The notes beneath the pieces are model-generated. The model saw nothing but the letters and a program-made list of their open reading frames with translations. It had not been told where the DNA came from and did no database searches. The position numbers and the translations under genes are program-made. This document shows, piece after piece, positions 6,037 to 62,505 of a stretch of DNA of 64,000 nucleotides. This DNA is from an uncultured Candidatus Saccharibacteria bacterium (GTDB lineage: Bacteria; Patescibacteriota; Minisyncoccia; Sungbacterales; HO2-52-23): the NCBI GenBank assembly GCA_964412615.1, contig CAYPPK010000001.1, positions 54,983 through 118,982 of the forward strand, written 5' to 3'. The stretch's first letter is position 1, and each line of letters starts with the position of its first letter.

Positions 6037-7830
6037 ATGGATATTAAAGCCACAAAAACAATTCTGCTTCTCTGGAGAGCTTTCCGGGAATACCGCTACC
6101 GGATTGTTTTTTTTGTGATTTTAGGATTTTTGGCAAGTATCTTGGCTGGAGTCGGCGTTACGGTCGTTATTCCTCTTTTTGCCCTGCTGGTCGGCAACCA
6201 GGGCGGGGAAGCGGGCGACATTACCAGGTACTTTTTGCAAATTTTCAATATTCTACCTTTTGCTCTTACGCCTCGGATCCTGATCTTGGGAATTGTGTCC
6301 TTGTTTGTTTCGCGGGCGGCAATTTTATATCTATTCAGCTATGTTCGTTCCCAGGCAAGATTTGATTATCAAAACAAAGCCATGTCGGAAACTTTTTCCG
6401 GGCTGCTGGAAGCGCGCTGGCCGTATTTGCTCAAGCAGAAGCTGGGGCATGTGCAGATGGCTTTGGGCCGCGATATCCAGCAAAGCTCAACTCTCTTGGA
6501 AAATTCCGCGGAAATTCTTTTTTCTTCCGCGAGCATCATAACTTTTCTGGCCTTTGCCATGACTATTTCTCCGCAAATTACTCTTTACACAGCGGCGGCA
6601 GGGGCTCTTCTACTCGGGGGGCTTCGGCCATTGGTGGTGGCCACTAAGAGAAATGCCCGGCTTTCTACTTTTCAGGAAAGACAAGTAGCCCACTTTGTTG
6701 CCGAAAGCACCCTGGGCTTAAAAACCGTTAAAACACTTGGTGCTGAAACAGCGCTATTCAAGAAAGGCGGGGAATTTTTTAAGGTTTTGCGGGATTTGAA
6801 CTTGAAAAGGGCTCTTACCGTCTCTTTATCCAGAATATCCGGAGAGCCGGTCAGCGTTGTTTTTATTTCTGCCATCTTCCTGCTTTCTTATCGCAGCGGA
6901 GGATTTGATTTTGCGGTTTTTGCGGCGGCGATTTATCTGATCCAGCGCATTTTCGTGAATCTGCAGGCCGCCCACGATGTGTTCCAGGCCATGAATGAGC
7001 GTCTTCCCCATCTGGAGAATTTTTTGAAATTCAAGGAAACGCTTGAGGAAGAACGGGAAGAGAACAAAAAAGAAGGATTATCGTTCGGTTTCTCGCGAGA
7101 GATTATCTTCAAAGACGTTTCTTTTGCTTATGAGGAGAGAACGCCGGTTTTGCAAGGAATGGGTATGGTTCTAAAAAAAGGAGAGATGCTTGCCCTCATC
7201 GGTCCTTCCGGGGCGGGCAAGACCTCGGTTGCTGATTTGCTGCTGCGGCTATTCAAACCCGGCAACGGCGCAATTTTTTGTGACGGAACTGAAGCAGAGC
7301 GTTTTGACTTAGGCGGCTGGCGCCGGTCTTTGGGGTATGTGTCGCAAGATCTCTTTTTGTTCAATGATTCAATCCAAAATAATATTAGATTTTACAATCC
7401 GGAGGTGAGCGACAGCGAGATTATTGAAGCAGCCAAGCAGGCGAATTCGTTTGAATTTATATCCAAACTGCCGGAAGGATTTCAAACCGTGATCGGTGAG
7501 CGGGGAGTCATGCTTAGCGCCGGTCAGCGTCAGCGAGTGGTTCTGGCGCGCGTGCTTGCCCGTCGCCCCCAGATTCTTATACTGGATGAAGCAACAAGCG
7601 CTCTGGATGCCGAGTCCGAGGCCTTGGTTCAGAAATCCATCCAGGCCCTTCGCGGCTCCATTACCGTTTTTGTCATCGCGCATCGGCTATCCACGGTGGT
7701 TGATGCCGATCGGGTGCTGGTACTTGATCAAGGAAAAATAATTGAAGAAGGGGATCCGCAAAAACTTCTTGCTGATAATAATTCATATTTTCACAGAATG
7801 TACTATCTGAAGGAAGAACAGAAAAAATGA
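6037..7830 (+). CDS. ABC transporter, fused permease/ATP-binding exporter (MsbA-like)
   Basis: 597 aa; 6 N-terminal TM helices; Walker A GPSGAGKT, signature LSAGQRQR, Walker B ILILDEATSALD. Confidence 0.8.
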   Translation: MDIKATKTILLLWRAFREYRYRIVFFVILGFLASILAGVGVTVVIPLFALLVGNQGGEAGDITRYFLQIFNILPFALTPRILILGIVSLFVSRAAILYLFSYVRSQARFDYQNKAMSETFSGLLEARWPYLLKQKLGHVQMALGRDIQQSSTLLENSAEILFSSASIITFLAFAMTISPQITLYTAAAGALLLGGLRPLVVATKRNARLSTFQERQVAHFVAESTLGLKTVKTLGAETALFKKGGEFFKVLRDLNLKRALTVSLSRISGEPVSVVFISAIFLLSYRSGGFDFAVFAAAIYLIQRIFVNLQAAHDVFQAMNERLPHLENFLKFKETLEEEREENKKEGLSFGFSREIIFKDVSFAYEERTPVLQGMGMVLKKGEMLALIGPSGAGKTSVADLLLRLFKPGNGAIFCDGTEAERFDLGGWRRSLGYVSQDLFLFNDSIQNNIRFYNPEVSDSEIIEAAKQANSFEFISKLPEGFQTVIGERGVMLSAGQRQRVVLARVLARRPQILILDEATSALDAESEALVQKSIQALRGSITVFVIAHRLSTVVDADRVLVLDQGKIIEEGDPQKLLADNNSYFHRMYYLKEEQKK

Positions 7831-18483: not shown

Positions 18484-20199
18484 ATGAGCAGAGGGTCGTA
18501 TTTAAAAATTATTTTTTCCAGCGCTGTTGCCGCGGTTATTTTTTATTTTCTGTTCAGCCGTTTTGCAGGAGCGGACCTGAAAACAAATCTTATTCAATTT
18601 AATTGGGAGTTAGGCATCTTGGCCTTAGCCATGTATGGACTATCGCTTGCGTTGAAAGCATTGCGTTTTAAATTCTTTCTTGGAAGAGCGATTGCTTTCC
18701 GGACAATTTACGGCATTACGGCCATCCACAGCTTCTGGAATAACCTGCTCCCGTTCCGCGCCGGAGAACTTGCTTATTTTTATTTGTTAAAAAAAGGAGG
18801 CACGGTTTCCGGCAGCGCCAATGTGGTATCGCTCCTGGTGGCGCGCCTTTTTGATGCCGTGGTGGTGTCGCTGCTGGCCGTTATCTCGGCATCTTTTCTT
18901 TTTACTGCCGCCGACCAGCTTTTAGGCGAGTTTTTAAGATATATACTTCTCGGCTCGGCCTTCGCGGTGCTTCTGGTTTTGGCCATAGCGTCTAGGTGGA
19001 GCGAAAAGTTTTCCCTATTTTTAGGTAATTTTACCGGAGGGAGGGAAAAGTCAGTGACGGTTGTGATTTTAAGCCGGATTCGCGAGGCGCTAGCGGCACT
19101 CTCTACTCTTAAAAGTTTTGCTAAGTTCGCTGTATTTTTGCTGCTTTCTCTGGCTATTTGGTTCGGTGACTTTTTGTTTGTCTGGACGGCTTTTAAAGCC
19201 GGCGGTTTAAATCTTACTCCTCTGCAAGGTTTATTTATCACTGCTTTTCCGGTAATTGCCATTATGATCCCCTTGCAAAGCCCTGCCGGCCTAGGGACTT
19301 TTGAGGGAACGCTGCTGGTCGGACTCCTCGCTTTGGGGATCAGCGGGGACGTTGGTCTGGGGGCAAGTGTTTTTTTACACGGGCAACTGCTTTTATTTTC
19401 CTTCTTATCGTTTTTGATCGCTACCTGGTTTCGCCGCCGCGATTCCGGGAATATGGAAACGCCGCGCACCAACTCGGACCTTTATGCTTCATTTTCCGAT
19501 CCAGAAAAAGATTTCCGCAACGCCAATCTTTCCGATCTTATTATCACTTTCGCTAGAGGAAATACGCTTCTGGATATTGGCTGCGGCTACGGACAATTGC
19601 TGAAGAAAGCCGCTAAATTGGGATTTGCGGCTTTGGGTGTTGAGCCCGATCCCGTAGCGCGGGAAATCGCCCGCCAGCATTATCCCGAGGTTGAAATAAT
19701 TCCAATTGAGGCAAAGAATTTCACGGCCGAACATTGCTTTGATACGGTGACCGTGCTGGACGTACTTGAGGATATAAAAGAAGACAAACAATTTTTGCAG
19801 AAGGCAGGTAATTTCGTGTGTCCCGGCGGGCGGCTTATAATTTCCGCTCCTGCTTTTCCAGCGCTCTACGGAGAGCGGGATCGCATGATGGGTTATTTCC
19901 GCCGTTATGACGCTCAGAACTTGGAAGCGATGCTTAAAAATCTAGGTTTTAATATCCGCCTGCGCAGATACTGGAATACGTTAAGTTTTGCGCCATATTT
20001 TATCCTTTATAAAGTGTTGAGGCGTTCTACGCACGCAGCAAAGCTTAGAGGGGGAAATACCAAAGGGTTTTCAGGCGGCCTTATCTCCCGCGTACTCTTT
20101 TGGTGGTTTAAAAACGTGGAGAATAAGTTCAATTTCGGTTTTGGCTTAACGATTATTTTGGTTGCCGAGAAAACGGGGGTTGCCAAGATGAAAAATTAA
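18484..20199 (+). CDS. fusion protein: N-terminal flippase-like/lysylphosphatidylglycerol-synthase-type TM domain + C-terminal class I SAM methyltransferase
   Basis: About 300 aa with 8 TM helices followed by LLDIGCGYGQL (motif I) ... VLDVLEDI methyltransferase domain. Confidence 0.5.
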   Translation: MSRGSYLKIIFSSAVAAVIFYFLFSRFAGADLKTNLIQFNWELGILALAMYGLSLALKALRFKFFLGRAIAFRTIYGITAIHSFWNNLLPFRAGELAYFYLLKKGGTVSGSANVVSLLVARLFDAVVVSLLAVISASFLFTAADQLLGEFLRYILLGSAFAVLLVLAIASRWSEKFSLFLGNFTGGREKSVTVVILSRIREALAALSTLKSFAKFAVFLLLSLAIWFGDFLFVWTAFKAGGLNLTPLQGLFITAFPVIAIMIPLQSPAGLGTFEGTLLVGLLALGISGDVGLGASVFLHGQLLLFSFLSFLIATWFRRRDSGNMETPRTNSDLYASFSDPEKDFRNANLSDLIITFARGNTLLDIGCGYGQLLKKAAKLGFAALGVEPDPVAREIARQHYPEVEIIPIEAKNFTAEHCFDTVTVLDVLEDIKEDKQFLQKAGNFVCPGGRLIISAPAFPALYGERDRMMGYFRRYDAQNLEAMLKNLGFNIRLRRYWNTLSFAPYFILYKVLRRSTHAAKLRGGNTKGFSGGLISRVLFWWFKNVENKFNFGFGLTIILVAEKTGVAKMKN

Positions 20200-37578: not shown

Positions 37579-38190
37579 ATGTCTGCGGAAACAAGCGACA
37601 ACCGAACCGAGCAACTGCGGCAGATTAAAGAAGAGGTGATTAATTTCAAAGAATCGCCGCTTTACCAAGAGCGGATACGGAATAAAGTGTTTCCGGTGAT
37701 CGGGGAGGGCAATCATTATGCCCAAATCATGTTTGTGGGCGAGGCGCCGGGCAGGGTGGAGGCCGCGACCGGTCGGCCTTTTTCCGGCCCTGCCGGAAAA
37801 ATCCTGGATGATCTCCTGAAGCAAATCGGGATTGAGCGCCAAGACGTCTATATAACTAACGTGGTAAAGGATAGGCCGCCTAATAATCGGGATCCGTTTC
37901 CGGATGAGATTGCGCTTTATGCGGCTTTTCTTGATCGGCAGATTGAGATTATACAGCCAAAAATAATTGTGGCTCTGGGGCGCCATTCCATGAAATATCT
38001 TTTGCAGAAGTTTGGGCTTCCTTTGGCGCAATCCATAAGTAAAATTCATGGCCAGGTTTTTGAAGCGGAAACAAAATACGGGAAAATAAAATTCATGCCT
38101 TCCTTTCATCCGGCTACCGTGCTTTATAATCCGGAAGCAAGAAAAGAATTGGAGGAAGATTTCCAAACTCTTAAGAAGTTGCTTGCCTAA
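37579..38190 (+). CDS. udg: uracil-DNA glycosylase, family 4
   Basis: 203 aa; GEAPG..E...G.PF.G.AG..L motif A and HPA motif B region of family-4 UDG. Confidence 0.75.
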   Translation: MSAETSDNRTEQLRQIKEEVINFKESPLYQERIRNKVFPVIGEGNHYAQIMFVGEAPGRVEAATGRPFSGPAGKILDDLLKQIGIERQDVYITNVVKDRPPNNRDPFPDEIALYAAFLDRQIEIIQPKIIVALGRHSMKYLLQKFGLPLAQSISKIHGQVFEAETKYGKIKFMPSFHPATVLYNPEARKELEEDFQTLKKLLA

Positions 38191-38626: not shown

Positions 38627-38818
38627 TTATCAAGAGTGCGGGCGCTCCGACACGAGGTTGGAGCGGAGGAACTGGCCTCTCAATCCGCCGACAACTTGCC
38701 ATCGATATTAATGGTAAAGTGCCAAATCCAGCCTTGTCCGCCGGAGCTTTAGCGAATGGCGGGCCGCAAGGAGAGATAAGTGTTGTCGCCTCTTCTTGCC
38801 GAAGGCGATTATTTTTTT
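38627..38818 (+). promoter_or_regulatory. SAM-I (S-box) riboswitch with intrinsic-terminator expression platform, 5' leader of metK
   Basis: UUAUCAAGAG...GGAGGAACUGGCC...GCCGACAAC...GGUAAAGUGCCAAAUCCAGCC...AAGGAGAGAUAAG matches SAM-I consensus (P1-P4, kink-turn); followed by GTCGCCT...AGGCGA hairpin + TATTTTTTT at 38783..38818. Confidence 0.85.
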
Positions 38819-38830
38819 AACTTTAAAATT

Positions 38831-39892
38831 ATGAGATCTACTTATACCGTAGAAAGTGTTACTGCTTCTCATCCGGATAAAATGTGCGATCAAATATCAG
38901 ATGCCATCCTGGATGCTTATCTTGCTCAAGATCCGCAAGCGCGGGTGGCCATGGAAACCTTTGGCGCGCATGACCTTTTGGTAATTGGAGGTGAGGTAAC
39001 TGCTAAAGCCCGAGTTGACGCGGCCGAAATCGCGCGCAAAATTTATCATAATGAAATCGGCTACCAAGAGCCGCTTTCCATAGTAACCAATATCATTCAG
39101 CAATCCCCGGACATCGCCCAAGGGGTAGACACCGGCGGAGCAGGAGACCAAGGTATAATGTACGGTTATGCTACTAATGAGACCCTTGAACTTCTGCCCA
39201 GAGGAGTAGTGTTTGCGCATCGTCTGGCCAAAAAACTGGAAGAGCTTGGGCAAGGCGATCCTGAATGCGCTTGGCTGCGTCCGCAAGGAAAGGCCCACGC
39301 TAAAACCCAGGTTACTATGCGGAACGGAAATGTTGTTTCTGCATTAGTTTCCTGCCAGCATTCCGAGGAAATATCGCAATCGGAAATTCGGGCTGCGCTG
39401 GTTAAAAAATTGTTCCAACCGGTTTTGGAAGACACTAAGGATGTGGAAATTTTGGTAAATCCTACCGGGAAATTTGTAGTTGGCGGTTTTGTGGCCGACA
39501 CTGGCCTGACCGGCAGGAAAATAATGGTTGATACTTACGGAGGGTTGATTCCCCATGGCGGCGGCGCATTTTCAGGCAAAGATCCCACCAAAGTTGACCG
39601 CTCGGCCGCTTATATGGCCAGATTCGCGGCCAAAAACCTGGTGGCCAACAATTTTGCCAAAGAATGTTTGGTTTCCGTGGCTTATGCCATTGGCAGAGCA
39701 GAGCCTTTAATGATCCATGCCGAAACCGAAGACGGCCGGGATTTAGGCCCTTTGGTAAGCAAGAAATTTGATTTCCGGCCGCGGGCGATTATTGAGCGCC
39801 TGAATCTGCGTCGGCCCATATATCAAGCAACTGCCTCATACGGACATTTCGGCAAAGCAGGCCTGCCCTGGGAAGAAGTCGTATCTATATAG
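38831..39892 (+). CDS. metK: S-adenosylmethionine synthetase
   Basis: Start at ATG 38831; SHPDKMCDQISDAILDA motif, GGGAFSGKDP P-loop, MetK central and C-terminal domains. Confidence 0.9.
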   Translation: MRSTYTVESVTASHPDKMCDQISDAILDAYLAQDPQARVAMETFGAHDLLVIGGEVTAKARVDAAEIARKIYHNEIGYQEPLSIVTNIIQQSPDIAQGVDTGGAGDQGIMYGYATNETLELLPRGVVFAHRLAKKLEELGQGDPECAWLRPQGKAHAKTQVTMRNGNVVSALVSCQHSEEISQSEIRAALVKKLFQPVLEDTKDVEILVNPTGKFVVGGFVADTGLTGRKIMVDTYGGLIPHGGGAFSGKDPTKVDRSAAYMARFAAKNLVANNFAKECLVSVAYAIGRAEPLMIHAETEDGRDLGPLVSKKFDFRPRAIIERLNLRRPIYQATASYGHFGKAGLPWEEVVSI

Positions 39893-40808: not shown

Positions 40809-41228
40809 ATGGAAGAATATCAATTTCAGCCACCTCCTCAACCAACTCTTTCTAACCCGGAATCTTCAACTCAAATGCCGTCTCAGCCGCAGCCGGCCCC
40901 GGTGCGGACGCCGGAATTGCCGCCGCAAACGCCACCGGCAGTCCCCAAGCCGGAACCTCAACCCAATTTATCTAAAGAATATCCATTGCTGCTTGAGCCC
41001 CAAAAACGAAATAAAGTTTTGTGGATTCTATCGGGAATCATGGCGCTGGCGGTATTATTTGTAGCATTTGTAATCTACTATGGCTCTTTGCCCGAACCGG
41101 GTGATACCGGGGCTCAAGCGGGGACTCCGGAAGCAATTACTAATCTTGAAGCAGAATTGCAGGCGGTGGACTTGCAGGACTTGGGCACGGAGCTGGAAGA
41201 CATAGAAAAAGAACTGCAAGGATTATAA
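40809..41228 (+). CDS. proline-rich single-pass membrane protein, hypothetical
   Basis: N-terminal P/Q-rich low complexity, one TM helix; followed by terminator 41232..41270. Confidence 0.35.
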   Translation: MEEYQFQPPPQPTLSNPESSTQMPSQPQPAPVRTPELPPQTPPAVPKPEPQPNLSKEYPLLLEPQKRNKVLWILSGIMALAVLFVAFVIYYGSLPEPGDTGAQAGTPEAITNLEAELQAVDLQDLGTELEDIEKELQGL

Positions 41229-41326
41229 AAAACAAAATCAGCCCGACTCTACCGGACTGATTTTGTTTTTATTTAAAAATCCGGTGTCAAATTGATTCTC
41301 CTGCGGTCATAAGATAAACTGAATTC

Positions 41327-41689
41327 ATGCTGTTTAAGAATGACAAATATATTTGGACTCATCATTCTCGCGATAAAATGCGTTATTACCGATTGACCGA
41401 AGCAAGAGTAAAAAGAATTATTCGGCATCCGGCCAGGATAGAGGAGGGAATCTTGGAGGAAGGGATCGCCTGCATGCAGCCCGCCCATGGCAGTGGGCGA
41501 GGCTTACCCATTTCTGCTGGGCGGCCGGCTAAGAATTACTCCGAGATCTGGGTCATGTATGTGCTGGCCAATACCAATGATAAAAGTAAAAAGATAAAAG
41601 TTATAACCGCTTGGCGCTATCCCGGTAAAAGCCCGGAGCGAGATCCAATACCGGTAGAAGTTTTAAAAGAAATAAAAAAATTGATATGA
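41327..41689 (+). CDS. DUF4258-domain protein (toxin-like)
   Basis: 120 aa; YIWTHHSRDKMRYYRLTEARVKRII ... VITAWRYP matches DUF4258 pattern (W..HA..RM.ERGI.....ITVY.P). Confidence 0.5.
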   Translation: MLFKNDKYIWTHHSRDKMRYYRLTEARVKRIIRHPARIEEGILEEGIACMQPAHGSGRGLPISAGRPAKNYSEIWVMYVLANTNDKSKKIKVITAWRYPGKSPERDPIPVEVLKEIKKLI

Positions 41690-42351
41690 ATCAACTCATC
41701 AAAGTTTCGCCATCCGGCATCAGTTACTTATTGGAATGCCCCCGCTGTCTTTGGCTGCATTTTAACGAAAGCGTAAAACGCCCGCGGGGCGCTTATCCCT
41801 CGCTGCCGGACGGCATGGACAATGTTTTCAAAAAATATTTTGACGAATATCGGGGCAAAGAGGAGCTTCCGCCTGAGATTGCAGGGAGAATCACCGGAAA
41901 ACTTTATACTGATCTTAAGCAACTTCACCAATGGAGGGAATTTAATTTCGGCAGGGGAGGAATACGCGCCGAATTTCCGGAGATGAATATGATGGTATCG
42001 GGCGCCATAGATGAATTAATGATTGCGCCGGACGGCAAATTTATTCCTTTTGATTTCAAAACCAGGGGCTATCCCACCAAAGAAGACACGCATGAGCATT
42101 ATCGCCATCAGCTTGATCTCTATGCTTTGCTTTTTGAGAAAAACGGCCACCAGCCGGCAGAACACGGTTACTTGCTTTTTTTCTGGCCCGAAACCTACGG
42201 CTTGGGGCAGGCATCGTTTAAAACCAACTTGGTTAAAATGGATGTTTCTCCCAGCCGCGGCTATGGGGTTTTGCAGAAAGCGCATCAAATTATCACAGGT
42301 CCTCAACCGGATGTTCATGCGGATTGCGAATACTGCGCTTACAGGGGCTAA
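41686..42351 (+). CDS. PD-(D/E)xK nuclease, Cas4/RecB-like with N- and C-terminal Cys pairs
   Basis: 221 aa; CPRC near N-terminus, D..(AIDEL)...FDFK motif II/III, Q..LY motif IV, CEYCAY C-terminus; ATGA overlap with DUF4258 gene. Confidence 0.55.
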   Translation: MNQLIKVSPSGISYLLECPRCLWLHFNESVKRPRGAYPSLPDGMDNVFKKYFDEYRGKEELPPEIAGRITGKLYTDLKQLHQWREFNFGRGGIRAEFPEMNMMVSGAIDELMIAPDGKFIPFDFKTRGYPTKEDTHEHYRHQLDLYALLFEKNGHQPAEHGYLLFFWPETYGLGQASFKTNLVKMDVSPSRGYGVLQKAHQIITGPQPDVHADCEYCAYRG

Positions 42352-42435
42352 ACATCACAAAGTGATGTCGCCCGATCTTTGCCGGTGCAGCAAAGATTTA
42401 GGGAAGTTAAAAGGCGGCTGGTTAGCCGCTATTCT

Positions 42436-42735
42436 CTATATAAATATAAACCCCTTAAGATTATTGCCTAGTAGCCAAAGAAGGGTGCTTCCCCGGGCTC
42501 TTGTTTCAACATCATCGGTATATTCTCCGGACTTGGTTTTTCGGGGAATAATTTTTTTTCGCACCAAAATCAAATCTTTTCTGATACCATCTTCCGTATG
42601 GCCGTTTTTTAAGGCAGATTCTAGCACTTCCTTTACTTTTTCGTAAAAACTCGGATTGTTTCCTTTTTCAAGATTGGCAGCAATAAGGATATCACAAGCG
42701 TAAATTTGAAGCTGAATTTCTTCCGGGGTACGCAT
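42436..42735 (-). CDS. hypothetical protein
   Basis: 99-aa ORF convergent with the nuclease gene; followed on minus strand by GCGGCT-AACC-AGCCGC hairpin + CTTTT. Confidence 0.3.
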   Translation of the reverse strand: MRTPEEIQLQIYACDILIAANLEKGNNPSFYEKVKEVLESALKNGHTEDGIRKDLILVRKKIIPRKTKSGEYTDDVETRARGSTLLWLLGNNLKGFIFI

Positions 42736-42806
42736 TTTTATGTCCTTTTGACGGGTCTAGTTACTTATGGTATTTTTATTTGGTAAAAAGTCAACCCTGC
42801 ATCAGT

Positions 42807-43541
42807 ATGCCGGTACTTGAAGTTAAAAATTTGGTGAAGATTTATAAGGACTTGGAAGCAGTCCGGGATATTTCTTTTGCGGTGGAAGAAGGAGAAATAG
42901 TGGGGCTTCTGGGGCCCAATGGCGCGGGGAAAACCACTACCATTAACATGATCCTGGGGCTGCTTACACCAACTTCCGGATCAATCAAAGCCTTCGGAAA
43001 AGATTTTGGGAAAAATCGGGAAGAAATTTTAGGGAAAGCGAACTTTGCCGCGGTTTATGCCCAACTGCCAGGCAATCTTTCCGTCTGGCAGAATCTTTTT
43101 ATTTTTGCTTTGCTTTATGGCGTACCTAGTCCAAGCGCGAAGGTGCAACAATTACTTGAAGAATTTGACCTGCAACAATTTTCCCATTCCCGCAGCGGTT
43201 TTCTTTCTTCCGGCGAACAGTCCCGGCTTAATTTAGCCAAAGCCTTGCTGAATAATCCCAAACTTTTGCTTTTAGACGAGCCTACTGCTTCCATTGATCC
43301 TAGCAACGCGCAAATTTTGCGGCAAAAAATCAAACAATATGCAAAGCAATTTAAGGCCGGAATTCTTTGGACCTCGCATAATATGAATGAAATTGACGAA
43401 GTATGCGACCGCGTCTTATTTATCTCCCACGGAAAAATCTTGCTGGGGGGCAACCCGCGTGATCTTCCCGGACAATACGGCAAGAAAAATCTGGAGGAGC
43501 TTTTCATCGCGGTAGCCAGAGAACCCTTATCTTTGCAGTAG
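42807..43541 (+). CDS. ABC transporter ATP-binding protein
   Basis: Walker A GPNGAGKTT, signature LSSGEQSR, Walker B LLLDEPT; start likely ATG 42807 (MPVLEVKNL). Confidence 0.8.
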   Translation: MPVLEVKNLVKIYKDLEAVRDISFAVEEGEIVGLLGPNGAGKTTTINMILGLLTPTSGSIKAFGKDFGKNREEILGKANFAAVYAQLPGNLSVWQNLFIFALLYGVPSPSAKVQQLLEEFDLQQFSHSRSGFLSSGEQSRLNLAKALLNNPKLLLLDEPTASIDPSNAQILRQKIKQYAKQFKAGILWTSHNMNEIDEVCDRVLFISHGKILLGGNPRDLPGQYGKKNLEELFIAVAREPLSLQ

Positions 43542-43542
43542 T

Positions 43543-43679
43543 ATGAATCCCACACATAACTTTCGCTGTGCTTTGCACCAGGAAAAGCCAGTGTGGGAAG
43601 GATAATAAATTTACCAAACCTTTCGTGATTTCTTGGAAAATTAAACCAGGTGGATTGCGAAAGTTATGTGTGGGATGAA
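43543..43679. repeat. palindromic intergenic element family A, copy 2 (137 bp)
   Basis: ATGAA-TCCCACACATAACTTTCGC ... GCGAAAGTTATGTGTGGGA-TGAA; terminal inverted repeat extends to 18+ bp in this copy. Confidence 0.8.
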
Positions 43680-44469
43680 TTTCAAACGTGCGTTCACAAT
43701 TTTTCTCCGTCAAATTTTCCTGCTCAAGAGGAGTTTTCACCGCCTGCTCGGAATTTTTTATTGGTCCATACTGGAACTCTTTTTATGGGGCTTTCTTACC
43801 GTGTATCTTAACCGGGTGGGCGAGAACCGCTTAAGTTTTATTACCGTGGTCATAGGCACGGTAATACTTTGGAACTTTTTGAATCGGATTCAGCAGGGAG
43901 TGGCCATATCTTTTCTCGAGGATGTGTGGGCCAGAAATTTCATGAATCTCTTTGCCTCTCCCCTGAACATTAAGGAATATGTGGGAGGATTGGTTCTGGT
44001 CAGTATCGTAAGCTCCACGGTATCTATTGCTGTCATGGCCCTAGCGGCTTGGCTGCTTTTTGCTTACAATCTTTTTCAATTTGGATTTCTGATGCTTCCC
44101 TTCATTGCCGTGCTCTTTTTATTCGGGCTGGCGCTTGGTTTTTACACTACGGCTATGATCTTACGCTTTGGCCCTTCTTCAGAAATTTTGGCCTGGTCCA
44201 TTCCGGCTCTTCTGCCTCCTTTCTCGGGAGTATTTTATCCTATCGCTACCCTGCCCGGCTGGATACAGCCCATCGCCAACCTCATTCCCATCTCTCATGT
44301 ATTTGAAGGCATGAGAACCATAGTAATTTCCGGCACTTTTGACCCCAACCGGCTTATTTTTGCCTCTTTGCTCGCGGCTTTCTTTTTAGTGGTTTCTTAT
44401 TGGCTGCTTTTGCGCACTTACCGTTTTGTGTTGCGTGAAGGACGGCTAACTCGCTTTCAGGTGGAATAA
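43675..44469 (+). CDS. ABC-2 type transporter permease
   Basis: 6 TM helices, ABC-2 family layout; start ATG 43675 is supplied by the right end of the repeat (ORF track started at ATG 43666 inside repeat). Confidence 0.65.
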   Translation: MNFKRAFTIFLRQIFLLKRSFHRLLGIFYWSILELFLWGFLTVYLNRVGENRLSFITVVIGTVILWNFLNRIQQGVAISFLEDVWARNFMNLFASPLNIKEYVGGLVLVSIVSSTVSIAVMALAAWLLFAYNLFQFGFLMLPFIAVLFLFGLALGFYTTAMILRFGPSSEILAWSIPALLPPFSGVFYPIATLPGWIQPIANLIPISHVFEGMRTIVISGTFDPNRLIFASLLAAFFLVVSYWLLLRTYRFVLREGRLTRFQVE

Positions 44470-44522: not shown

Positions 44523-44804
44523 ATGGCATTACTATTAATGTCTTTATTTATGCCTGAAGAAAAGAAAGATATAGCTAAATGGGTTATAGTTTTTATCTCC
44601 TTGGCTGTCGGTTTGGGCGGCGGGTATTATTTTGGTCTTAATCGCGGGGTGGCTAAAGAAAAAGCAGCGGAAGAAGCAAGAAAACTTGAGGCAGAAAAAG
44701 CAGCGGCCAAAGCCGTGAATCCTTTTGAGCAGGTTTCCAGCAATCCTTTTGAAAAAGCCCCAGTAAATCCGTTTGAAAATGTTAAGACGAATCCGTTTGA
44801 ATAA
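44523..44804 (+). CDS. small membrane protein with four C-terminal NPFE repeats
   Basis: 93 aa; TM helix then (V/S/T)NPFE x4. Confidence 0.3.
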   Translation: MALLLMSLFMPEEKKDIAKWVIVFISLAVGLGGGYYFGLNRGVAKEKAAEEARKLEAEKAAAKAVNPFEQVSSNPFEKAPVNPFENVKTNPFE

Positions 44805-44808
44805 CTTT

Positions 44809-46761
44809 ATGCAGAAAAAAAATCTCATATTTGCTTCTGCTATTTTTGCATTAGCGCTAAGCTACTCCGCGTTCATCTATGCGCAGGAGTTCACTTATCC
44901 TGTTCCGGAGCTTGGGAACTGCGAATCGCAGGAAGCATGTAAGGCATATTGCGACGATTCTAGCCACCTTGACGAATGCGTACAATTTGGAGAGAAGCAT
45001 AACCTTCTGGATAAAGAAGAGTTAAAAAAAGCCAAAGAGTTTGAGGGGCAGACCGGCCCCGGCGGATGCCAAGGCGCCAACGAGTGCCGCGCTTATTGCG
45101 AGGACTCCAGCCATCAAAATGAATGTCTTGAGTTTGGCCAACGCAAGGGATTAATCTCCGATCAAAACGCTGAAGTCACTCGGCGCGTGCGCCAGGAAGG
45201 CGGTCCGGGAGGATGCAAAGACGAAAAAGAATGCCGTGCCTATTGCGAAGATCCGGCCAATCTTGATCAATGCTTTGCGTTTGCCGAGACCAATGGATTG
45301 ATTTCCGGAGAAGAAGCCAGCCGCCTTAAAAAAATGGCTTTAGTTTCCGGCCCCGGCGGCTGCAGGGGAAATGAATGCCGAACTTATTGCGAGGATCCCG
45401 GCCACCAACAGGAATGCATTGCGTTTGCGGAGGAAAACGGATTGATGTCTAAAGAAGAGGCGGAGCGGGCCAAAAAATTTGCCGGGAAAACCGGTCCGGG
45501 AGGATGCCGGGGAGAAGAATGCCGCACTTTTTGCGAAAATCCGGAAAGTGCGGGAGGCTGTCTGGATTTTGCGGCCAAAGAAGGATTGATGCCTCCGCAA
45601 GAATTGGAAAGAGCCCGGAAATTTATAAAAGTGTCGCAAGAAGGAGGTCCGGGGGGATGCAAAGGAGGGCAATGCCGGGAATTTTGCGCGGATCCTGCCA
45701 ATCAAAACCAATGTTTTGAGTTTGCCAAAAAGCAGGGGCTCATTAACCCCGCAGAGGAAAAACAGTTTGAGGCGGGAATGAAAATAAGGGAAAAATTGGA
45801 AACGACCGGCGGTCCGGGAGGATGTAAAAATGAAAATGACTGCCGCGCGTATTGCGCCGATCCTGATCGCGTGGAAGAATGCGTGGCCTTTGGCGCTGCG
45901 CATGGCGGCATTCCCGAAACGGAAGCGCGTGAAATGCTGAAAAATTTTCAAGAAAAGCGTTTTGAATTGCGCCAGGAGTTTCGGCCGCCGGAAGATTTTG
46001 CCCGATTTAAAGAGGAGGCGGAAAGAAGGTTTGAGGAATTTAAGCAGCTGGAAATACAATTTCGCAATCGGCCGGAATTAATGGGTCCACCCGCGGGCGG
46101 AGAATTTCCCGCGGGCAGCGGAGCTGAAAGCGGGCAAGTCGGGCCCGGCGGATGTTCTTCAGCATCGGAGTGTATAAAATATTGTTCCGAGCATAAAGAA
46201 GAATGCTTTAGTTTCGGACCGGCAGGAAAACCAGACGTGCTGCCTCCGCAGGGGGGAATTCCTCCCGGACAAGATGGATCTGCCGGCAGATCGGATTTTC
46301 CGCAACTGCGCCAGGATGCCGTGCAATTACGTCCTAGATTAGAACCACGGCCGAAAGATTTAAAAATTGAGCCGCAGCTCAAGAAAGAATTGGAGCAGCG
46401 TTTTCCTGAAGAATTTGAAAGGCGTTCGCCAGAAAATTTTTCGCCTTCTCCCGAAAATATTCAGCCACCCCAGATGAGAACTTTTCCTGCTCCGCCGGAA
46501 GGATTCAAGCCGTCAGATTTACCGTCTGTTTCGCCAAGACCGGAATCATTTTCGCCCCCAGCTGATAATTTCTCGCGTCCGCCTGACAATTCTTTCCTGC
46601 CGCCACCGGTATCGGCACCTCTGCCCAGCGGTTCATTTGAGCAGCAATTCACTCCCGCACCGGACAGCACCGGAGGAGAACAAGCACCGCCGCCTCCGCC
46701 TCCCAGCAGCAGCTTAAATAGCGGTTTTCTGGCCAGTATTATCCATTTCTTTGTCTGGTAA
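44809..46761 (+). CDS. secreted protein with about 9 tandem Cys-rich repeats (GPGGC..ECR.YCEDP....C..F) and Pro-rich C-terminal region
   Basis: Signal peptide MQKKNLIFASAIFALALSYSAFIYA; about 40-aa unit with 4 conserved Cys repeated about 9 times (tandem 120-bp DNA repeats 45040..45900); C-terminal P/S-rich region and hydrophobic tail. Confidence 0.5.
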   Translation: MQKKNLIFASAIFALALSYSAFIYAQEFTYPVPELGNCESQEACKAYCDDSSHLDECVQFGEKHNLLDKEELKKAKEFEGQTGPGGCQGANECRAYCEDSSHQNECLEFGQRKGLISDQNAEVTRRVRQEGGPGGCKDEKECRAYCEDPANLDQCFAFAETNGLISGEEASRLKKMALVSGPGGCRGNECRTYCEDPGHQQECIAFAEENGLMSKEEAERAKKFAGKTGPGGCRGEECRTFCENPESAGGCLDFAAKEGLMPPQELERARKFIKVSQEGGPGGCKGGQCREFCADPANQNQCFEFAKKQGLINPAEEKQFEAGMKIREKLETTGGPGGCKNENDCRAYCADPDRVEECVAFGAAHGGIPETEAREMLKNFQEKRFELRQEFRPPEDFARFKEEAERRFEEFKQLEIQFRNRPELMGPPAGGEFPAGSGAESGQVGPGGCSSASECIKYCSEHKEECFSFGPAGKPDVLPPQGGIPPGQDGSAGRSDFPQLRQDAVQLRPRLEPRPKDLKIEPQLKKELEQRFPEEFERRSPENFSPSPENIQPPQMRTFPAPPEGFKPSDLPSVSPRPESFSPPADNFSRPPDNSFLPPPVSAPLPSGSFEQQFTPAPDSTGGEQAPPPPPPSSSLNSGFLASIIHFFVW

Positions 46762-47905: not shown

Positions 47906-47995
47906 TGTTTGACATCTTTTTTAACACCCTGAGGGTACTTGACTTTTTTGGGCCGTAGTGTAAACCGGTATTTAGAACATGAACAAGGAGACGCT

Positions 47996-49618
47996 ATGGC
48001 AAAGCCCTCTGCGGAATATTGGGAATCTCGAGGAATTCCAAAAGAACTGTGTGAAGCCTATAAAGTTTTCTATGATGCCTGCAGGGTAATAAAAGTAGGC
48101 GGGGTTGATTGGCGTATCTTCCCTGGCGTGCCGGCAACTGACTCAATGGATGAAGGTCTCAAGAGACTGGATGAATTTGGCTTAGCCATTAGACTGGGGT
48201 TTTATTCAATTCTTTTGGGTCCAAATGAGGAAGCGACAAAATTTTTGGATAGTATGCAATGGGATGAGAGAAGAGTTGTTCTTTACAGGGTAGGTATGGA
48301 ATTTGCTAGGTCAAACATGGACGGAGGATTGAAATCTCCTGTTATACTTAGACATGCCGGCCAATTGCTCGGGGATAGTCCTTTATTAAATGAGGTTAGA
48401 GACCTGATACGTCAAGCGGCCCTGAGACCTATTACCGTTGTCCTAGAAGGAGATACTGGCACAGGCAAAGAACTGGTTGCCCGTCTTCTGCATAACGACA
48501 GCGATAGGAGAGAGCAACCATTTGTACCCATAAACTGCGCGGCGGTCCCCGAAACTCTTATGGAAAGCACGCTCTTCGGTCACGAAAGGGGTGCTTTTAC
48601 CGGCGCCGTAAATCGGCATCACGGTGTTTTTGAACAAGCAAATCACGGGACTCTCTTTCTAGATGAGATTACCGAACTTCAGTTGCACCTCCAGGCTAAG
48701 CTCCTGCGGGTTCTGCAGGAAGGAAAAATCAGAAGAGTTGGGGGGAAAGAAGATCTTGTAGTTGACGTGCGAGTGGTCGCGGCTACCAATAAAGGCCTTC
48801 TTAAAGCGCTTGCCGAAAGGACTCTCCGCCAGGATCTTTTCTATCGGCTGGACGTGGTGAGAATCCACATGCCTTCGCTAAGGGACCGTCCAGAGGACAT
48901 TGTCCTCTTGGCTCAGCATTTTTTGCTAAAAACATGCGCCTCCTGGGGAATTAATCCTCTTCCGGGGTTTTCTCCCGAGGCAATAGCTGCAATGCGTCTG
49001 CATTCCTGGCCGGGCAATGTCCGGGAGCTGGAAGCATGCGTTACTCGGGCACTGGTTAAGCATACGGGCGGCGTGATCGCCGAGAAGGATTTGGGAATCA
49101 ACGGCAAAAATACGGGAATTGAATCAGAACCGGATGAAGCGGAAGTGCTAAAGACATATTATGAGGTTCAGAGGGGACATGTTCTGCGGGTGCTAGAAGC
49201 CTGCAACTGGAACAGAACACATGCGGCTAAGATCTTGGGGGTTACCGTGAGGACTATAAGAAACAATCTGCGCAGAGAGAAAGAAGAAAGGATGCGCCGT
49301 GGTCAAAAAGGACTTGTGATTCCAGCCGGAGGCGATGGTCGCTCAATATCGGGGGTTCCAAGACCAGGGTTTGAAAAAGAGATTAAGAAAGGCGTAAGCA
49401 AACTTTTGGGTGATAAAGATTTTGGACCGGTTCATAAGCAAGATTGGCCTCCAAGAGGAGATAAAGGTTCCGATGTTACTAGAATTAGACTATTGCTTGT
49501 CGCACGAGCTCTCCGCCAAACAGACTTCCAAAAACGAAAAGCAGCCGAGTTACTAGGTATTTCGGAAGGCACTCTCGCTGCTTGGGCGAGCATGATTCGA
49601 AGGGTATACAGCCGATAA
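47996..49618 (+). CDS. sigma-54-dependent transcriptional activator (bacterial enhancer-binding protein), Fis-type HTH plus extra C-terminal HTH
   Basis: AAA+ domain with Walker A GDTGTGKE, GAFTGA loop, Walker B LFLDEI, R-finger; HTH LEACNWNRTHAAKILGVTVRTIRN; second HTH-like AAELLGISEGTLAAW; start ATG 47996 preceded by AAGGAG. Confidence 0.75.
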   Translation: MAKPSAEYWESRGIPKELCEAYKVFYDACRVIKVGGVDWRIFPGVPATDSMDEGLKRLDEFGLAIRLGFYSILLGPNEEATKFLDSMQWDERRVVLYRVGMEFARSNMDGGLKSPVILRHAGQLLGDSPLLNEVRDLIRQAALRPITVVLEGDTGTGKELVARLLHNDSDRREQPFVPINCAAVPETLMESTLFGHERGAFTGAVNRHHGVFEQANHGTLFLDEITELQLHLQAKLLRVLQEGKIRRVGGKEDLVVDVRVVAATNKGLLKALAERTLRQDLFYRLDVVRIHMPSLRDRPEDIVLLAQHFLLKTCASWGINPLPGFSPEAIAAMRLHSWPGNVRELEACVTRALVKHTGGVIAEKDLGINGKNTGIESEPDEAEVLKTYYEVQRGHVLRVLEACNWNRTHAAKILGVTVRTIRNNLRREKEERMRRGQKGLVIPAGGDGRSISGVPRPGFEKEIKKGVSKLLGDKDFGPVHKQDWPPRGDKGSDVTRIRLLLVARALRQTDFQKRKAAELLGISEGTLAAWASMIRRVYSR

Positions 49619-56174: not shown

Positions 56175-57629
56175 ATGTCTATGCCGAAAGAAGGCAGGAT
56201 ACATCTAAATAAATACGCTCCGCCGCCTCCCGAGTTGCCGGTCTACCAGCAAATAGATCCGCGGGAGGTTTCTTTTATCGGCCGCACCAATTACGAGGCG
56301 CCTCTGGAATCCAAGAAATATATTTTTGGCATCAGGCGCAAAGACCGCCGGCGCCATGTTTATATCGTGGGCAAGTCCGGAGTGGGCAAATCAAAACTTT
56401 TGGAACTTATGGCACGCCAGGATATTGCTTACGGCCATGGGGTTTGTTTGATTGACCCGCACGGAGACGTGATAGAAGAAGTTTTAAAATTTATTCCGGA
56501 AGAGCGCGTTGGAGACGTGATTTTGATTGATCCGGCCGACGCCGATTGGCCTATTTCTTTTAACCCCTTGCAAAAAGTGCCGCCTGATTTAAAGCATCAA
56601 ATGGCGCAGGGTTTGATTGAAGTCATGGAAAAACAATTCGGAGCCAACTGGACCCCGCGCCTGGAGCATGTTTTTCGCTTTACAACCTTGGCTTTATTGG
56701 ATTATCCCGAGGCGACTTTGCGGGGTATGATCTCCATGCTAACTGACCGACCGTATCGCCAAAAAGTCATTGAATACATTACCGATGACATGGTAAAGCG
56801 CTTTTTTGCGGTAGAATTCGCCGATTGGTCGGAGAAGTTTGATACTGACGCCATCATTCCTTTGGTAAATAAACTCGGCCAATTTCTTTCCATGCCCATG
56901 CTGCGCAATATTTTTGCCCAGAAAGAAAATAAAATTGACTTGGAGGAGATAATGAACAATAAAAAAATCCTTCTGATTAACCTTTCCAAGGGCAAACTGG
57001 GAGAGGAAAATTCCAGTTTCTTCGGTTCCATGTTTATTACCAAGATCAAACAGGCCGGCATGGCGCGGGCCGGCATGCCGGAGGAAAAACGAACGGACTT
57101 TTATCTATATGTAGACGAGTTCCATAATTTAGTAACCGATTCTTTTACCAATCTTTTTTCTGAAGCGCGCAAGTACGGGCTTAACCTTACCGTCGCTCAC
57201 CAATATACCGCTCAGCTTTTACCTGAAGTGCTGGCTACTGTTTTGGGTAATGTGGCCAATATTATTATTTTCCGGGTTGGGGGCGATGACGCGGCCAAAC
57301 TGGAATCCGAAATGACTCCGGTTTTCAAGGCCAAAGACATGATTAACTTAGGCACGCAGGAATTTTATATCAAAGAAACAATTGACGGAGAGACCTATGA
57401 TCCTTTTTCTGCCGAAACTCTTAAGATTCTTCCGGCTCCGCATCCTTCTTACAAAAGCAAAATTATAGAGGCTTCCCATCAAAAATACGCCATGCACGTG
57501 GAGGAAGTTAAAAAAATGCTCAAAGAGGAAGAAGAGGCGGTGATTTTCAGGAAAAATGGCAATACTTCTTCTGCCACTTCCGCCGACAATGCGAATGGCT
57601 ACGAGTCTCCACCCGAACCACTGATTTAA
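56175..57629 (+). CDS. VirD4/TraG/TraD-like P-loop ATPase (DUF87/TraG-D_C type, 'type IV secretion DNA-binding domain' family)
   Basis: Walker A GKSGVGKS, Walker B FYLYVDEFHN, AHQY motif; paralog of 60508..62505. Confidence 0.6.
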   Translation: MSMPKEGRIHLNKYAPPPPELPVYQQIDPREVSFIGRTNYEAPLESKKYIFGIRRKDRRRHVYIVGKSGVGKSKLLELMARQDIAYGHGVCLIDPHGDVIEEVLKFIPEERVGDVILIDPADADWPISFNPLQKVPPDLKHQMAQGLIEVMEKQFGANWTPRLEHVFRFTTLALLDYPEATLRGMISMLTDRPYRQKVIEYITDDMVKRFFAVEFADWSEKFDTDAIIPLVNKLGQFLSMPMLRNIFAQKENKIDLEEIMNNKKILLINLSKGKLGEENSSFFGSMFITKIKQAGMARAGMPEEKRTDFYLYVDEFHNLVTDSFTNLFSEARKYGLNLTVAHQYTAQLLPEVLATVLGNVANIIIFRVGGDDAAKLESEMTPVFKAKDMINLGTQEFYIKETIDGETYDPFSAETLKILPAPHPSYKSKIIEASHQKYAMHVEEVKKMLKEEEEAVIFRKNGNTSSATSADNANGYESPPEPLI

Positions 57630-60507: not shown

Positions 60508-62505
60508 ATGGCCAAAAACGAAAAAGATATTATTTATATAGGCAAATGCAATTTCCGCGGCAATGAGCGGGTTTTTGGCATTAAAACCAAAGATCGCCGC
60601 CAGCATATGTATGTAATCGGCAAGACCGGAGTGGGCAAGACCGCGCTTCTTAAAAATTTAGCGCTGCAAGATATCCGAGCGGGAAGAGGTTTGGCCATAA
60701 TTGATCCGCACGGTGAATTCGTGGAGGAAGTTCTCTCGCAAATTCCGCCAGAGCGAACCAACGATGTAATTTATTTCAATCCCGTTGATACGGAATTTCC
60801 CATCGGATTTAATGTTTTGGAAGTACCGGATCAAAAATACAAACACTTGGTAGTGTCTGACTTGTTGGGCATTTTTACTAAAATCTGGGCCAATGTCTGG
60901 TCGGCCCGCATGGAATACATTCTGCAAAATTGCATCATGGCCCTTTTGGATACTCCCGGCACCACGCTTTTGGGGATTCCGCGTCTTTTGGTAGACAAGG
61001 ACTATCGGCAAAAAATAATTGCCAACGTCAAAGATCCGGTAGTAAAATCCTTCTGGGTGCATGAATACGAGACCTGGCGGGATCAATTTAGAAACGAAGC
61101 CATAGTTCCAATTCAAAATAAGGTAAACCAGTTTTTAAATACCGCTTTTATCCGCAATATCGTAGGCCAGCCCAAATCCACGCTTAATATCCCAGAGATC
61201 ATGAATTCCCGGAAGATCCTTCTGGTTAATGTTTCCAAGGGAAGAATAGGAGAGGATAATTCCGCGCTCTTGGGCGCCATGATTATTACCAAAATACAAC
61301 TCGCGTCCATGGAACGCGTGAGAATTCTGGAAGACGAACGGGTGGATTTTTATTTATATGTGGATGAGTTCCAGAATTTTGCTACCGATTCTTTTGCCAG
61401 CATTTTATCCGAAGCAAGAAAATACCGACTAAACATTATTATCGCGCATCAATATGTAGGGCAGTTGGTAACTGATGTCTCCACTAAAGTCCGCGACGCG
61501 GTATTTGGTAACGTAGGAACTATGATTACATTTCGGGTGGGAGCTACGGATGCCGAATTTCTGGAGCCGGAATTTACTCCCGAGTTCATGGGACAGGATA
61601 TAATAAATCTTCCCAACCATCATGTTTATTTGAAATTAATGGTGGATGGAGTTACTTCTCGGCCGTTTTCTTCCGTTACGCTGCCCCCTTTGCAGTTTGA
61701 AACCGATCCGGAAGTGCGGGAGAAAATCATCAAGGTTTCGCGGCAGCGTTATGCTAAACCAAGAGTAGAAGTGGAAGATAAAATTTCACGCTGGAGTGGA
61801 CTTTCTGGAGAATTAGAGGAGAGGGGGAGCAGCGGAACCCCAGCTCTGCCGCCAGGCCAACTTATAGAAACTCCTTGCTGGAACTGCGGCAAAACCGCCA
61901 CCGTGCCGTTTAAGCCCGATGGCCGCCGGCCGGTTTATTGCATGTCCTGTCTTAAGCAGATAGAAGAGGGCAAACTTATTCCTATTCCCGAACGCATGCC
62001 TAAAGTTGGCCGGGAAAAATACAGCCAGTCTCTAGAAGGACTGGGAATTGAATTTGGAGCAGCAAGTAAGGAGACTCGGCCTTCTTATAACCAAAACCAA
62101 GATAGAAAGGAGCCAATGGCAGTTCCTGATAGAATTGGGAATCGTCCCGCTATGCCCAAAGGAAATAATTTTCAGCGCAATAAGCGACGGGAGGATGAAC
62201 GCGTGAAAACGCCCAGCAAAAAGGAAGAAATAAAAATGGGGATACGCTCGCAACCCGTGGTGCGGTCGGCTTCGGGAGTAAAGCCTATTTCACTTTCTTC
62301 TTTGGAGCCCAAAATAGAAGAAGAAAGTCCGACGAACGAAGAAAAAAAATCTCCAAATAAATTTCCCGGATTAAAAGAGCTTTTGCGCGAAGTACTCAAA
62401 ACTGATCAAAATCATAAAGAAGAAATAAAAACGACAGAAAATAAAAAAAGAGAAGCAAAAGAAAATAGCAAAATAGTAAAACCCGGAGATGTAATAAAAT
62501 TTTAA
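60508..62505 (+). CDS. VirD4/TraG/TraD-like P-loop ATPase with C-terminal zinc-ribbon and Lys/Glu-rich tail (paralog of 56175..57629)
   Basis: Walker A GKTGVGKT, Walker B FYLYVDEFQN, AHQY; C-terminal CWNCG...CMSC zinc ribbon and low-complexity K/E-rich tail. Confidence 0.6.
   Translation: MAKNEKDIIYIGKCNFRGNERVFGIKTKDRRQHMYVIGKTGVGKTALLKNLALQDIRAGRGLAIIDPHGEFVEEVLSQIPPERTNDVIYFNPVDTEFPIGFNVLEVPDQKYKHLVVSDLLGIFTKIWANVWSARMEYILQNCIMALLDTPGTTLLGIPRLLVDKDYRQKIIANVKDPVVKSFWVHEYETWRDQFRNEAIVPIQNKVNQFLNTAFIRNIVGQPKSTLNIPEIMNSRKILLVNVSKGRIGEDNSALLGAMIITKIQLASMERVRILEDERVDFYLYVDEFQNFATDSFASILSEARKYRLNIIIAHQYVGQLVTDVSTKVRDAVFGNVGTMITFRVGATDAEFLEPEFTPEFMGQDIINLPNHHVYLKLMVDGVTSRPFSSVTLPPLQFETDPEVREKIIKVSRQRYAKPRVEVEDKISRWSGLSGELEERGSSGTPALPPGQLIETPCWNCGKTATVPFKPDGRRPVYCMSCLKQIEEGKLIPIPERMPKVGREKYSQSLEGLGIEFGAASKETRPSYNQNQDRKEPMAVPDRIGNRPAMPKGNNFQRNKRREDERVKTPSKKEEIKMGIRSQPVVRSASGVKPISLSSLEPKIEEESPTNEEKKSPNKFPGLKELLREVLKTDQNHKEEIKTTENKKREAKENSKIVKPGDVIKF

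Follow-up and report, generated by a model that had tools for sequence, protein, structure and literature searches.

Overlapping genes for a BECR-fold protein and a solo Cas4-like nuclease in Candidatus Sungbacteria: probable chromosomal housekeeping genes rather than a toxin-antitoxin or defence island

Cas4, AddB, Dna2 and Exo5 are iron-sulfur RecB-type nucleases, and the characterised enzymes carry their cysteines in the arrangement C...CxxCx5C, a 1+3 spacing. Bacteria from the candidate phyla radiation (CPR) have many conserved genes without known function, and their DNA-repair toolkit is poorly understood. Stand-alone relatives of Cas4, the solo-Cas4/pfam12705 (PDDEXK_1) nucleases, occur in CPR bacteria and DPANN archaea; they are over-represented in CPR genomes, where they are mainly vertically inherited and suspected of roles in repair, and Cas4-like genes have also been recruited by mobile elements (Hudaiberdiev et al., 2017, PMC5704561). 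A second relevant group is DUF4258 (PF14076), a family of ~6K Pfam members that a 2026 preprint equates with Ntox49 and places in the colicin-like branch within the BECR (RelE/BrnT/colicin E5) toxin-fold superfamily. The same preprint describes this branch as a pre-alpha helix, an alpha helix and strands beta1 to beta4, with the active-site histidine in the pre-alpha helix. The characterised colicin-like BECR enzymes mostly cut tRNA, and in the published DUF4258 gene order the antitoxin lies upstream. Relatives of both groups are encoded side by side by two overlapping open reading frames, ORF1 and ORF2, in a 64,000-nucleotide stretch of contig CAYPPK010000001.1 (positions 54,983 to 118,982; hereafter the window, whose own coordinates are used below). 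The host is a Candidatus Sungbacteria (Parcubacteria/CPR) genome, from a group of groundwater bacteria whose genomes are tiny.

The reading favoured here, and held to be moderately probable, is that ORF1 and ORF2 are vertically inherited chromosomal housekeeping genes of Sungbacteria that serve nucleic acids, and not a mobile toxin-antitoxin (TA) or defence island. ORF1 (41327-41689, + strand) encodes 120 amino acids, ORF2 (41686-42351, +) encodes 221, and a third frame, ORF3 (42436-42735, -; 99 amino acids), converges on them, all three at the positions given in the initial annotation. The 4-bp overlap that it reported is read directly from the sequence: in ATTGATATGAATCAA, the stop codon TGA of ORF1 (41687-41689) runs over the start codon ATG of ORF2 (41686-41688), and the same junction read as ATTGATATGAATC places the ORF1 stop across the ORF2 start (ATGA, 41686..41689, +). 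The same ATGA overlap is found in the closest relative, locus L085. Upstream, RNA folding places a hairpin with a U-tract, of the intrinsic-terminator kind, at 41228-41270 (+) after a gene for a 139-amino-acid protein (-24.5 kcal/mol, z = -3.6, with 0/200 shuffles folding equally well), separating ORF1 from upstream transcription. Downstream, a terminator scan finds a GC-rich hairpin at 42413-42430, between the stops of ORF2 and ORF3, that scores as a terminator on both the + and - strands. With terminator-like hairpins on both sides and an ATGA overlap between the genes, ORF1 and ORF2 appear to form a bicistronic unit of their own.

Codon-usage scoring, trained on 35 long genes of the window, gave positive scores for ORF1, ORF2 and ORF3 in their own frames only. 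Database searches returned 436 homologues of ORF2 (down to E 1e-154) and 484 of ORF1 (down to E 1e-54). Because many homologues exist and the coding score is confined to their own frame, ORF1 and ORF2 are real genes and not chance open reading frames. Two alternative frames overlapping ORF2 were rejected: one at 42023-42646 (+) has a non-coding score in its own frame, and one at 42016-42318 (-) scores 0.02 in its own frame against 0.128 for the opposing frame of ORF2. Neither the Rfam scan nor the tRNA scan of the window returned a match.

By its sequence, ORF2 is a nuclease of the solo-Cas4 type, a known kind with a variant cysteine signature. It matches Pfam PDDEXK_1 (PF12705) above the gathering cutoff (38.6 bits, cutoff 22; E 1.5e-9), and its distant relatives in other clades match the same family at 51-54 bits. 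Cas4 models score below their curated cutoffs (PF01930, 16.9 vs 22.7 bits; TIGR00372, 35.3 vs 65), while the Cas4 models of PADLOC, a library without a curated cutoff, match at E 1e-7 to 1e-11. Among full-length family matches, the strongest is to phrog_31195 of PHROGs (1e-37), an uncharacterised family. The catalytic residues are D109, D123-F-K125 and Q142-xxx-Y146, with D109, D123, K125, Q142 and Y146 invariant in an alignment of 64 homologues; of the motif set D, E.K, Q..Y first proposed, the aspartate and the Q...Y element are thus present, whereas the supposed E.K is really D.K. The paired cysteines described at the same time, CPRC (C18, C21) and CEYC (C214, C217), are in place, each occurring in 99% of the sequences among 120 homologues, and the protein ends four residues past the last of them. 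This CPRC...CxxC (2+2) signature is kept in relatives from other clades that are only 25-31% identical.

Comparison with known structures points in the same direction. The family profile aligns the N-terminal 'SPS..CPR' of ORF2 with the Cas4 protein Pcal_0546 (PDB 4r5q), the first cysteine matching the cysteine of its CPR, and the block of motifs GxID...DxK...QLxxY can be aligned to one chain in the AdnAB complex (PDB 6ppu_B). ORF2 shares its three-dimensional fold with the iron-sulfur RecB-type nucleases Cas4, AddB, Dna2 and Exo5, which, together with the PDDEXK_1 match and the conserved motifs, broadly bears out the earlier assignment to a Cas4-like PD-(D/E)xK nuclease, putatively of the Fe-S type. 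In contrast to the nuclease domains of AdnAB/AddAB, Dna2 and Exo5, ORF2 is a single 221-amino-acid domain without a helicase, and its cysteines are spaced differently. ORF2 is predicted to be an active stand-alone nuclease of this RecB type. The cysteine pairs at its N and C termini are probably the ligands of a metal cluster that would clamp the two ends of the fold to each other, in the manner of Cas4, AddB, Dna2 and Exo5, and the enzyme would most likely resect or trim DNA ends or flaps in repair and recombination.

The description of ORF2 as a nuclease standing apart from any CRISPR system is upheld within the window, in which the array scan found no CRISPR array and the 56 proteins gave no cas or defence match besides the Cas4-like one. 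Cas genes and CRISPR were also not seen in the related loci; the rest of the genome outside the window was not searched. The absence of CRISPR-cas, the PD-(D/E)xK motifs, the four conserved cysteines and the clade-wise, apparently vertical inheritance in small-genome environmental bacteria are all shared with the solo-Cas4 proteins of CPR and DPANN, while the scores below the Cas4 cutoffs, the CxxC...CxxC cysteines and the best match to phrog_31195 set ORF2 apart from them. A tblastn search of GenBank phages gave no match to ORF2, and an exact-sequence look-up of the nuclease returned no record. Relatives at 38-39% identity are present on two IMG/VR viral contigs, and on the one examined, L086, the nuclease gene lies ~1.5 kb from a terminase gene. 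These viral relatives, another point shared with solo-Cas4, are in line with the published uptake of Cas4-like genes into mobile elements.

ORF1 is a small basic protein with a colicin-like BECR fold, remotely related to DUF4258. The initial annotation called it a DUF4258-type protein; the toxin-fold superfamily and the recurrence of DUF4258 matches agree with this, but the match of ORF1 itself is below threshold (E 0.22, 12.3 bits, gathering cutoff 25). Sub-threshold DUF4258 matches (E<=1) occur in 76/96 close homologues, the best at E 4.7e-5, and matches at E<=1e-3 in only 9/118 diverse representatives of the family. DUF4258 is the sole Pfam family that recurs across it. The structure model, a confident one (pLDDT, the predicted local distance difference test, 84), has helices at residues 12-20 and 25-33 followed by four strands, that is, the pre-alpha, alpha and beta1-4 elements of the colicin-like branch, with a conserved histidine in the pre-alpha helix. 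None of the 96 close homologues departs from this residue, His13, which at least 90% of the 118 diverse representatives also have; T11, K17, Y21, R37, E39, E73, W75, W96, Y98, P99 and G100 are conserved similarly. The conserved basic residues include K17, R22, R27, K29, R30, R33, R37, R97 and R105. Residues 54-66 form a low-complexity insert; of the 120 homologues listed, at least half have a gap there. A conserved tail, WRYPGxSPxRDPIP, with a further helix extends beyond the BECR core. Since the histidine is kept at the catalytic position of the branch, ORF1 is most likely an RNA-directed enzyme or binder, and it is best taken as a domesticated colicin-like BECR protein.

The depositor's annotation (P0124) gives ORF1 as 78 amino acids, starting at codon 43. 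The 42 residues left out are the best-conserved stretch of the family (W10, T11, H13, K17, Y21, R37 and E39), and for this reason the 120-amino-acid call is correct and the deposited model truncated. Direct sequence searches with ORF1 found nothing in NCBIfam, PADLOC or PHROGs, and the family profile found nothing among PDB sequences; tblastn searches of GenBank phages and PLSDB plasmids and a scan of IMG/VR gave no match. Run against 1.84 billion representatives, the ORF1 family profile finds no more than 342 clusters at 50% identity (E<=1e-3). Against the size of DUF4258 in Pfam, this small number suggests that the ORF1 family is compact and does not merge with the bulk of DUF4258, so that it is read as a new family in a fold superfamily that is already known. 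Compared with the DUF4258/Ntox49 colicin-like BECR toxins, ORF1 shares the pre-alpha and alpha helices, the four strands and the conserved histidine in the first helix; it differs in that its family is under the Pfam cutoff (best homologue E 1e-5), carries the extra tail and helix, lacks an upstream antitoxin, and has a genomic context that tracks the ORF1 tree instead of being scattered. From the RelE, YoeB and BrnT type II toxins it differs in identity (<=16%), in having no cognate antitoxin, and in the two helices before the sheet, which are colicin-like and not RelE-like.

Those homologues of ORF1 and ORF2 that carry a name belong to metagenome-assembled genomes of Candidatus Sungbacteria and further Parcubacteria. 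When one genome was scanned for each species, ORF1 relatives turned up in at least 248 stretches or species genomes, and 80 loci, each on a different contig record, were kept. Neighbours were mapped by hidden Markov models (HMMs), an ORF1 tree was built, and adjacency was counted over 83 non-redundant loci. Four classes of context coincide with clades of the ORF1 tree. Within Sungbacteria, the nuclease lies downstream of ORF1. The Azambacteria-containing clade has a distant member of the same nuclease family directly upstream of ORF1 and, in some loci, Mpg downstream, a 3-methyladenine glycosylase (Pfam 1e-47). The order in the Jorgensenbacteria-containing clade is dnaX(-), PEBP, ORF1, Mpg and YchF, with Mpg absent in some, and in the Spechtbacteria-containing clade neither the nuclease nor Mpg is found at ORF1. 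Depending on the clade, the upstream neighbour of ORF1 is the 139-amino-acid proline-rich protein, PEBP or the nuclease, and the downstream neighbour is the nuclease, Mpg, YchF or another gene. No small partner conserved across these classes was found.

The gene order of the Sungbacteria clade, with which the window is identical, is uracil-DNA glycosylase (UDG), (MetK), a coiled-coil protein, a small protein, ORF1, the nuclease, an ABC ATPase and an ABC-2 permease. In the window, the UDG superfamily gene is at 37579..38190 (+; Pfam UDG 1e-35), the syntenic housekeeping gene for S-adenosylmethionine synthetase (MetK) at 38780..39892 (+; assigned by the Pfam families of the L001 and L085 homologues and by HMM mapping), and the ABC transporter ATPase and ABC-2 permease at 42780-43541 and 43666-44469 (both +; Pfam ABC_tran 1.6e-32 and ABC2_membrane 2e-11). 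The downstream order of ATPase and permease is repeated in L001, L005, L009, L030, L032 and L056. The nuclease is downstream of ORF1 on the same strand in 22 of the 30 Sungbacteria-clade loci; it is nearby on the opposite strand in two and not within the flank in five, and one locus is at a contig edge. Spacing in these 22 pairs varies, with overlapping or abutting genes (-13 to +4 bp) in nine, 41-128 bp between them in nine and more than 300 bp in four, so that the translational coupling of the window is not a constant of the family. Two loci of the Azambacteria-containing clade (L031 4333-5975 and L041 2966-4601) hold three tightly packed, co-oriented genes in the order nuclease (CPRC...CxxC), ORF1 homologue, 3-methyladenine DNA glycosylase, which is the most repair-like setting of the ORF1 family.

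These distributions bear directly on the suggestion in the initial annotation that the pair is a small defence or addiction island. On that account, ORF1 would be a DUF4258-type ribonuclease (RNase) toxin and ORF2 its partner, immunity protein or co-effector, with a role in addiction or against phages. The BECR toxin fold and the recurring weak DUF4258 matches speak for it, as do the listing of DUF4258 as a type II TA toxin family (PMC11980606), the PADLOC Cas4-family matches of ORF2, the overlap of the two genes, and the ORF2 relatives on viral contigs. However, the chromosomal position recurs across the Sungbacteria clade, the ORF1 tree tracks clade and context, and the partner of ORF1 switches among the nuclease, Mpg, YchF and none; because the partner varies by clade, there is no cognate antitoxin. 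Upstream of ORF1, where the published order would have an antitoxin, lie a terminator and the proline-rich protein. ORF1 itself has no PADLOC match and no plasmid or phage copies, and ORF2 keeps all its catalytic residues, unlike an antitoxin. An island of this kind is accordingly judged improbable. The finding named at the outset as telling against a defence or TA role, a conserved housekeeping gene with the same partner in all related genomes, largely holds; the neighbours of ORF1 change with the clade. The fallback offered there, a DNA-repair nuclease with an unusual partner, comes close to what the evidence shows.

Under the favoured housekeeping reading, ORF1 would be domesticated, as its inheritance along clade lines across Parcubacteria, its single copy at every one of the 80 loci retained and its lack of a conserved antitoxin suggest. 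Its recurrent, co-oriented adjacency to the nuclease family and to the 3-methyladenine glycosylase suggests that it is co-expressed with the processing of nucleic-acid damage. One of the two enzymes is directly adjacent to ORF1 and co-oriented with it in 52/83 loci, and neither is in 31/83. That ORF1 adjoins the nuclease family in two arrangements, and Mpg as well, suggests a functional tie to DNA-damage enzymes; this falls short of proof, since loci with neither enzyme still keep ORF1. A more specific version gives the ORF1 family a housekeeping part in the handling of nucleic-acid damage in Parcubacteria, as a colicin-like RNase that has been domesticated or as a derivative of such an RNase that binds nucleic acids. 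It would be expressed together with a solo Cas4-like nuclease, a 3-methyladenine glycosylase or both, and substrate specificity or the conserved C-terminal tail, instead of an antitoxin, would keep it harmless. ORF1 might then, for example, remove stalled complexes or damaged tRNA or rRNA at the same time as the DNA enzymes mend the lesion. This scheme is regarded as unlikely.

Several observations weigh against the favoured reading of the pair. ORF1 occurs without the nuclease in five Sungbacteria-clade loci and in most other clades, and without Mpg in 10 loci of the order dnaX-PEBP-ORF1-YchF. Since ORF1 persists without the one and without the other, neither enzyme can be required for its function. 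The GTPase-family gene YchF turns up near ORF1 just as often, and in very compact genomes adjacency may be mere synteny. A toxin-fold RNase with a catalytic histidine but no visible inhibitor is, moreover, unexplained. For ORF2, the 2+2 cysteine spacing is unlike the 1+3 spacing of Cas4, AddB, Dna2 and Exo5, and the four-cysteine site could bind zinc instead of an Fe-S cluster.

The main rival sees the two genes as neighbours by synteny only. It takes ORF2 as a repair nuclease and ORF1 as an unrelated housekeeping factor of RNA or translation, such as an RNase for tRNA or rRNA processing or a ribosome-binding protein, the overlap being a product of CPR gene packing. ORF1 lacks the nuclease in most clades, overlaps whichever gene comes next (including Mpg in many loci), is often near YchF, and belongs to a branch whose characterised members mostly cut tRNA, and these points speak for the rival. 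Passive synteny alone is nonetheless hard to fit to a nuclease that lies downstream of ORF1 in Sungbacteria and upstream of it in the Azambacteria-containing clade, the two nucleases being 25-31% identical, or to the presence of a DNA-damage enzyme directly beside ORF1 in 52/83 loci. This alternative has a real claim but is, on balance, doubtful.

One unusual relative of ORF1 has been adduced for the same rival, to which it points only weakly. In P0291 (L088 3798-4778), on a single contig, an in-frame fusion joins an ORF1 domain to a methyltransferase whose NPPY motif we take to be HemK/PrmC-like. The gene directly upstream encodes an ATP-cone and AF1548-like (restriction-endonuclease-fold) protein. 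The contig is only 5.4 kb long with ~6x coverage, and the fusion may be real or an artefact of assembly or frameshift. It was set aside as a functional clue: it stands on one low-coverage contig, and neither 84 other loci nor the window have such a methyltransferase close to ORF1.

A further alternative is that ORF1 is a catalytically inert nucleic-acid-binding subunit or regulator that loads, restrains or targets the adjacent nuclease or glycosylase, comparable to BECR proteins of the ParE type, which work by binding protein and not by cleaving RNA. The many conserved basic residues, the conserved C-terminal tail and helix past the BECR core, and the adjacency to two different repair enzymes would suit such a role, whereas the conserved His13, Glu39, Glu73 and Tyr98 resemble an active site, and ORF1 persists in the 31/83 loci with neither enzyme adjacent. 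Of the explanations considered, this one is regarded as the least credible, and as very improbable.

The favoured housekeeping reading has consequences for how such loci are interpreted. The analysis places a solo Cas4-like family with unusual 2+2 cysteines in a stable chromosomal context beside repair genes, which backs the earlier suggestion that solo-Cas4 serves repair and not immunity in CPR. A second outcome is a compact protein family with the BECR fold and no antitoxin, which Pfam does not cover and which is inherited along clade lines. If ORF1 is an active RNase, a toxin fold has turned into a housekeeping enzyme; if the damage-handling scheme is correct, reduced genomes have drawn the toxin fold of a conflict system into core metabolism. 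Nothing in the locus is strongly surprising, but the ORF1 family makes a clean candidate for the recruitment of a toxin fold to core functions in CPR. Genome surveys should not count pairs of this kind as TA or defence systems.

ORF3, which the initial annotation listed as an unknown converging frame, does converge on ORF2 but is not part of the module. It sits between the nuclease and the ABC transporter and shares the bidirectional terminator with ORF2. Its codon score of 0.155 equals the gene mean and is confined to its own frame, and it is probably coding on this measure; its GC content is 0.39 against ~0.46. No family match was found in Pfam, NCBIfam, PADLOC or PHROGs, the sole match among 5.8 billion clusters is ORF3 itself, and tblastn gave no match in 84 related loci. 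L085, whose nuclease is 85% identical, has no ORF3, and its next + strand gene begins 8 bp past the nuclease; this gene is an unannotated fragment at the contig end, taken as the ABC ATPase by analogy with L001. Membership in the module was dropped for the lack of homologues and the absence from related loci, leading to the conclusion that ORF3 is a strain-specific orphan insertion outside the conserved module.

Other genes of the window gave matches to defence-related models. A 559-amino-acid protein (47939-49615, +) matches the PADLOC model RtcR_PspF2--CARF_AAA_HTH at E 2.5e-105, over model positions 167-477 only; it was rejected as a CRISPR-ancillary gene, the match covering the AAA+/HTH part and not the CARF part. 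An AAA+ protein of the PspF or sigma-54-activator type seems unusual for a CPR genome, and the first 140 residues of this one carry no assignment. A 484-amino-acid protein (56175-57629, +) has TrwB/HerA-type ATPase domains like those of a type IV coupling protein (Pfam 2.7e-10), and probably accounts for the HerA matches in the PADLOC scan of the window. Three large proteins (6037-7830, 18484-20199 and 60508-62505) have weak to moderate PADLOC matches to mad2, mad3 and mad8 (E 1e-13 to 1e-29); because the region resembles glycosyltransferase and cell-envelope genes, these are probably generic domain matches and not a defence system. Finally, a 662-amino-acid protein (44773-46761, +) consists of about eight cysteine-rich repeats (GPGGC...C(R/K)xYC...C..F) followed by a proline-rich tail, and its homologues of 818-881 amino acids are syntenic in related Sungbacteria loci.

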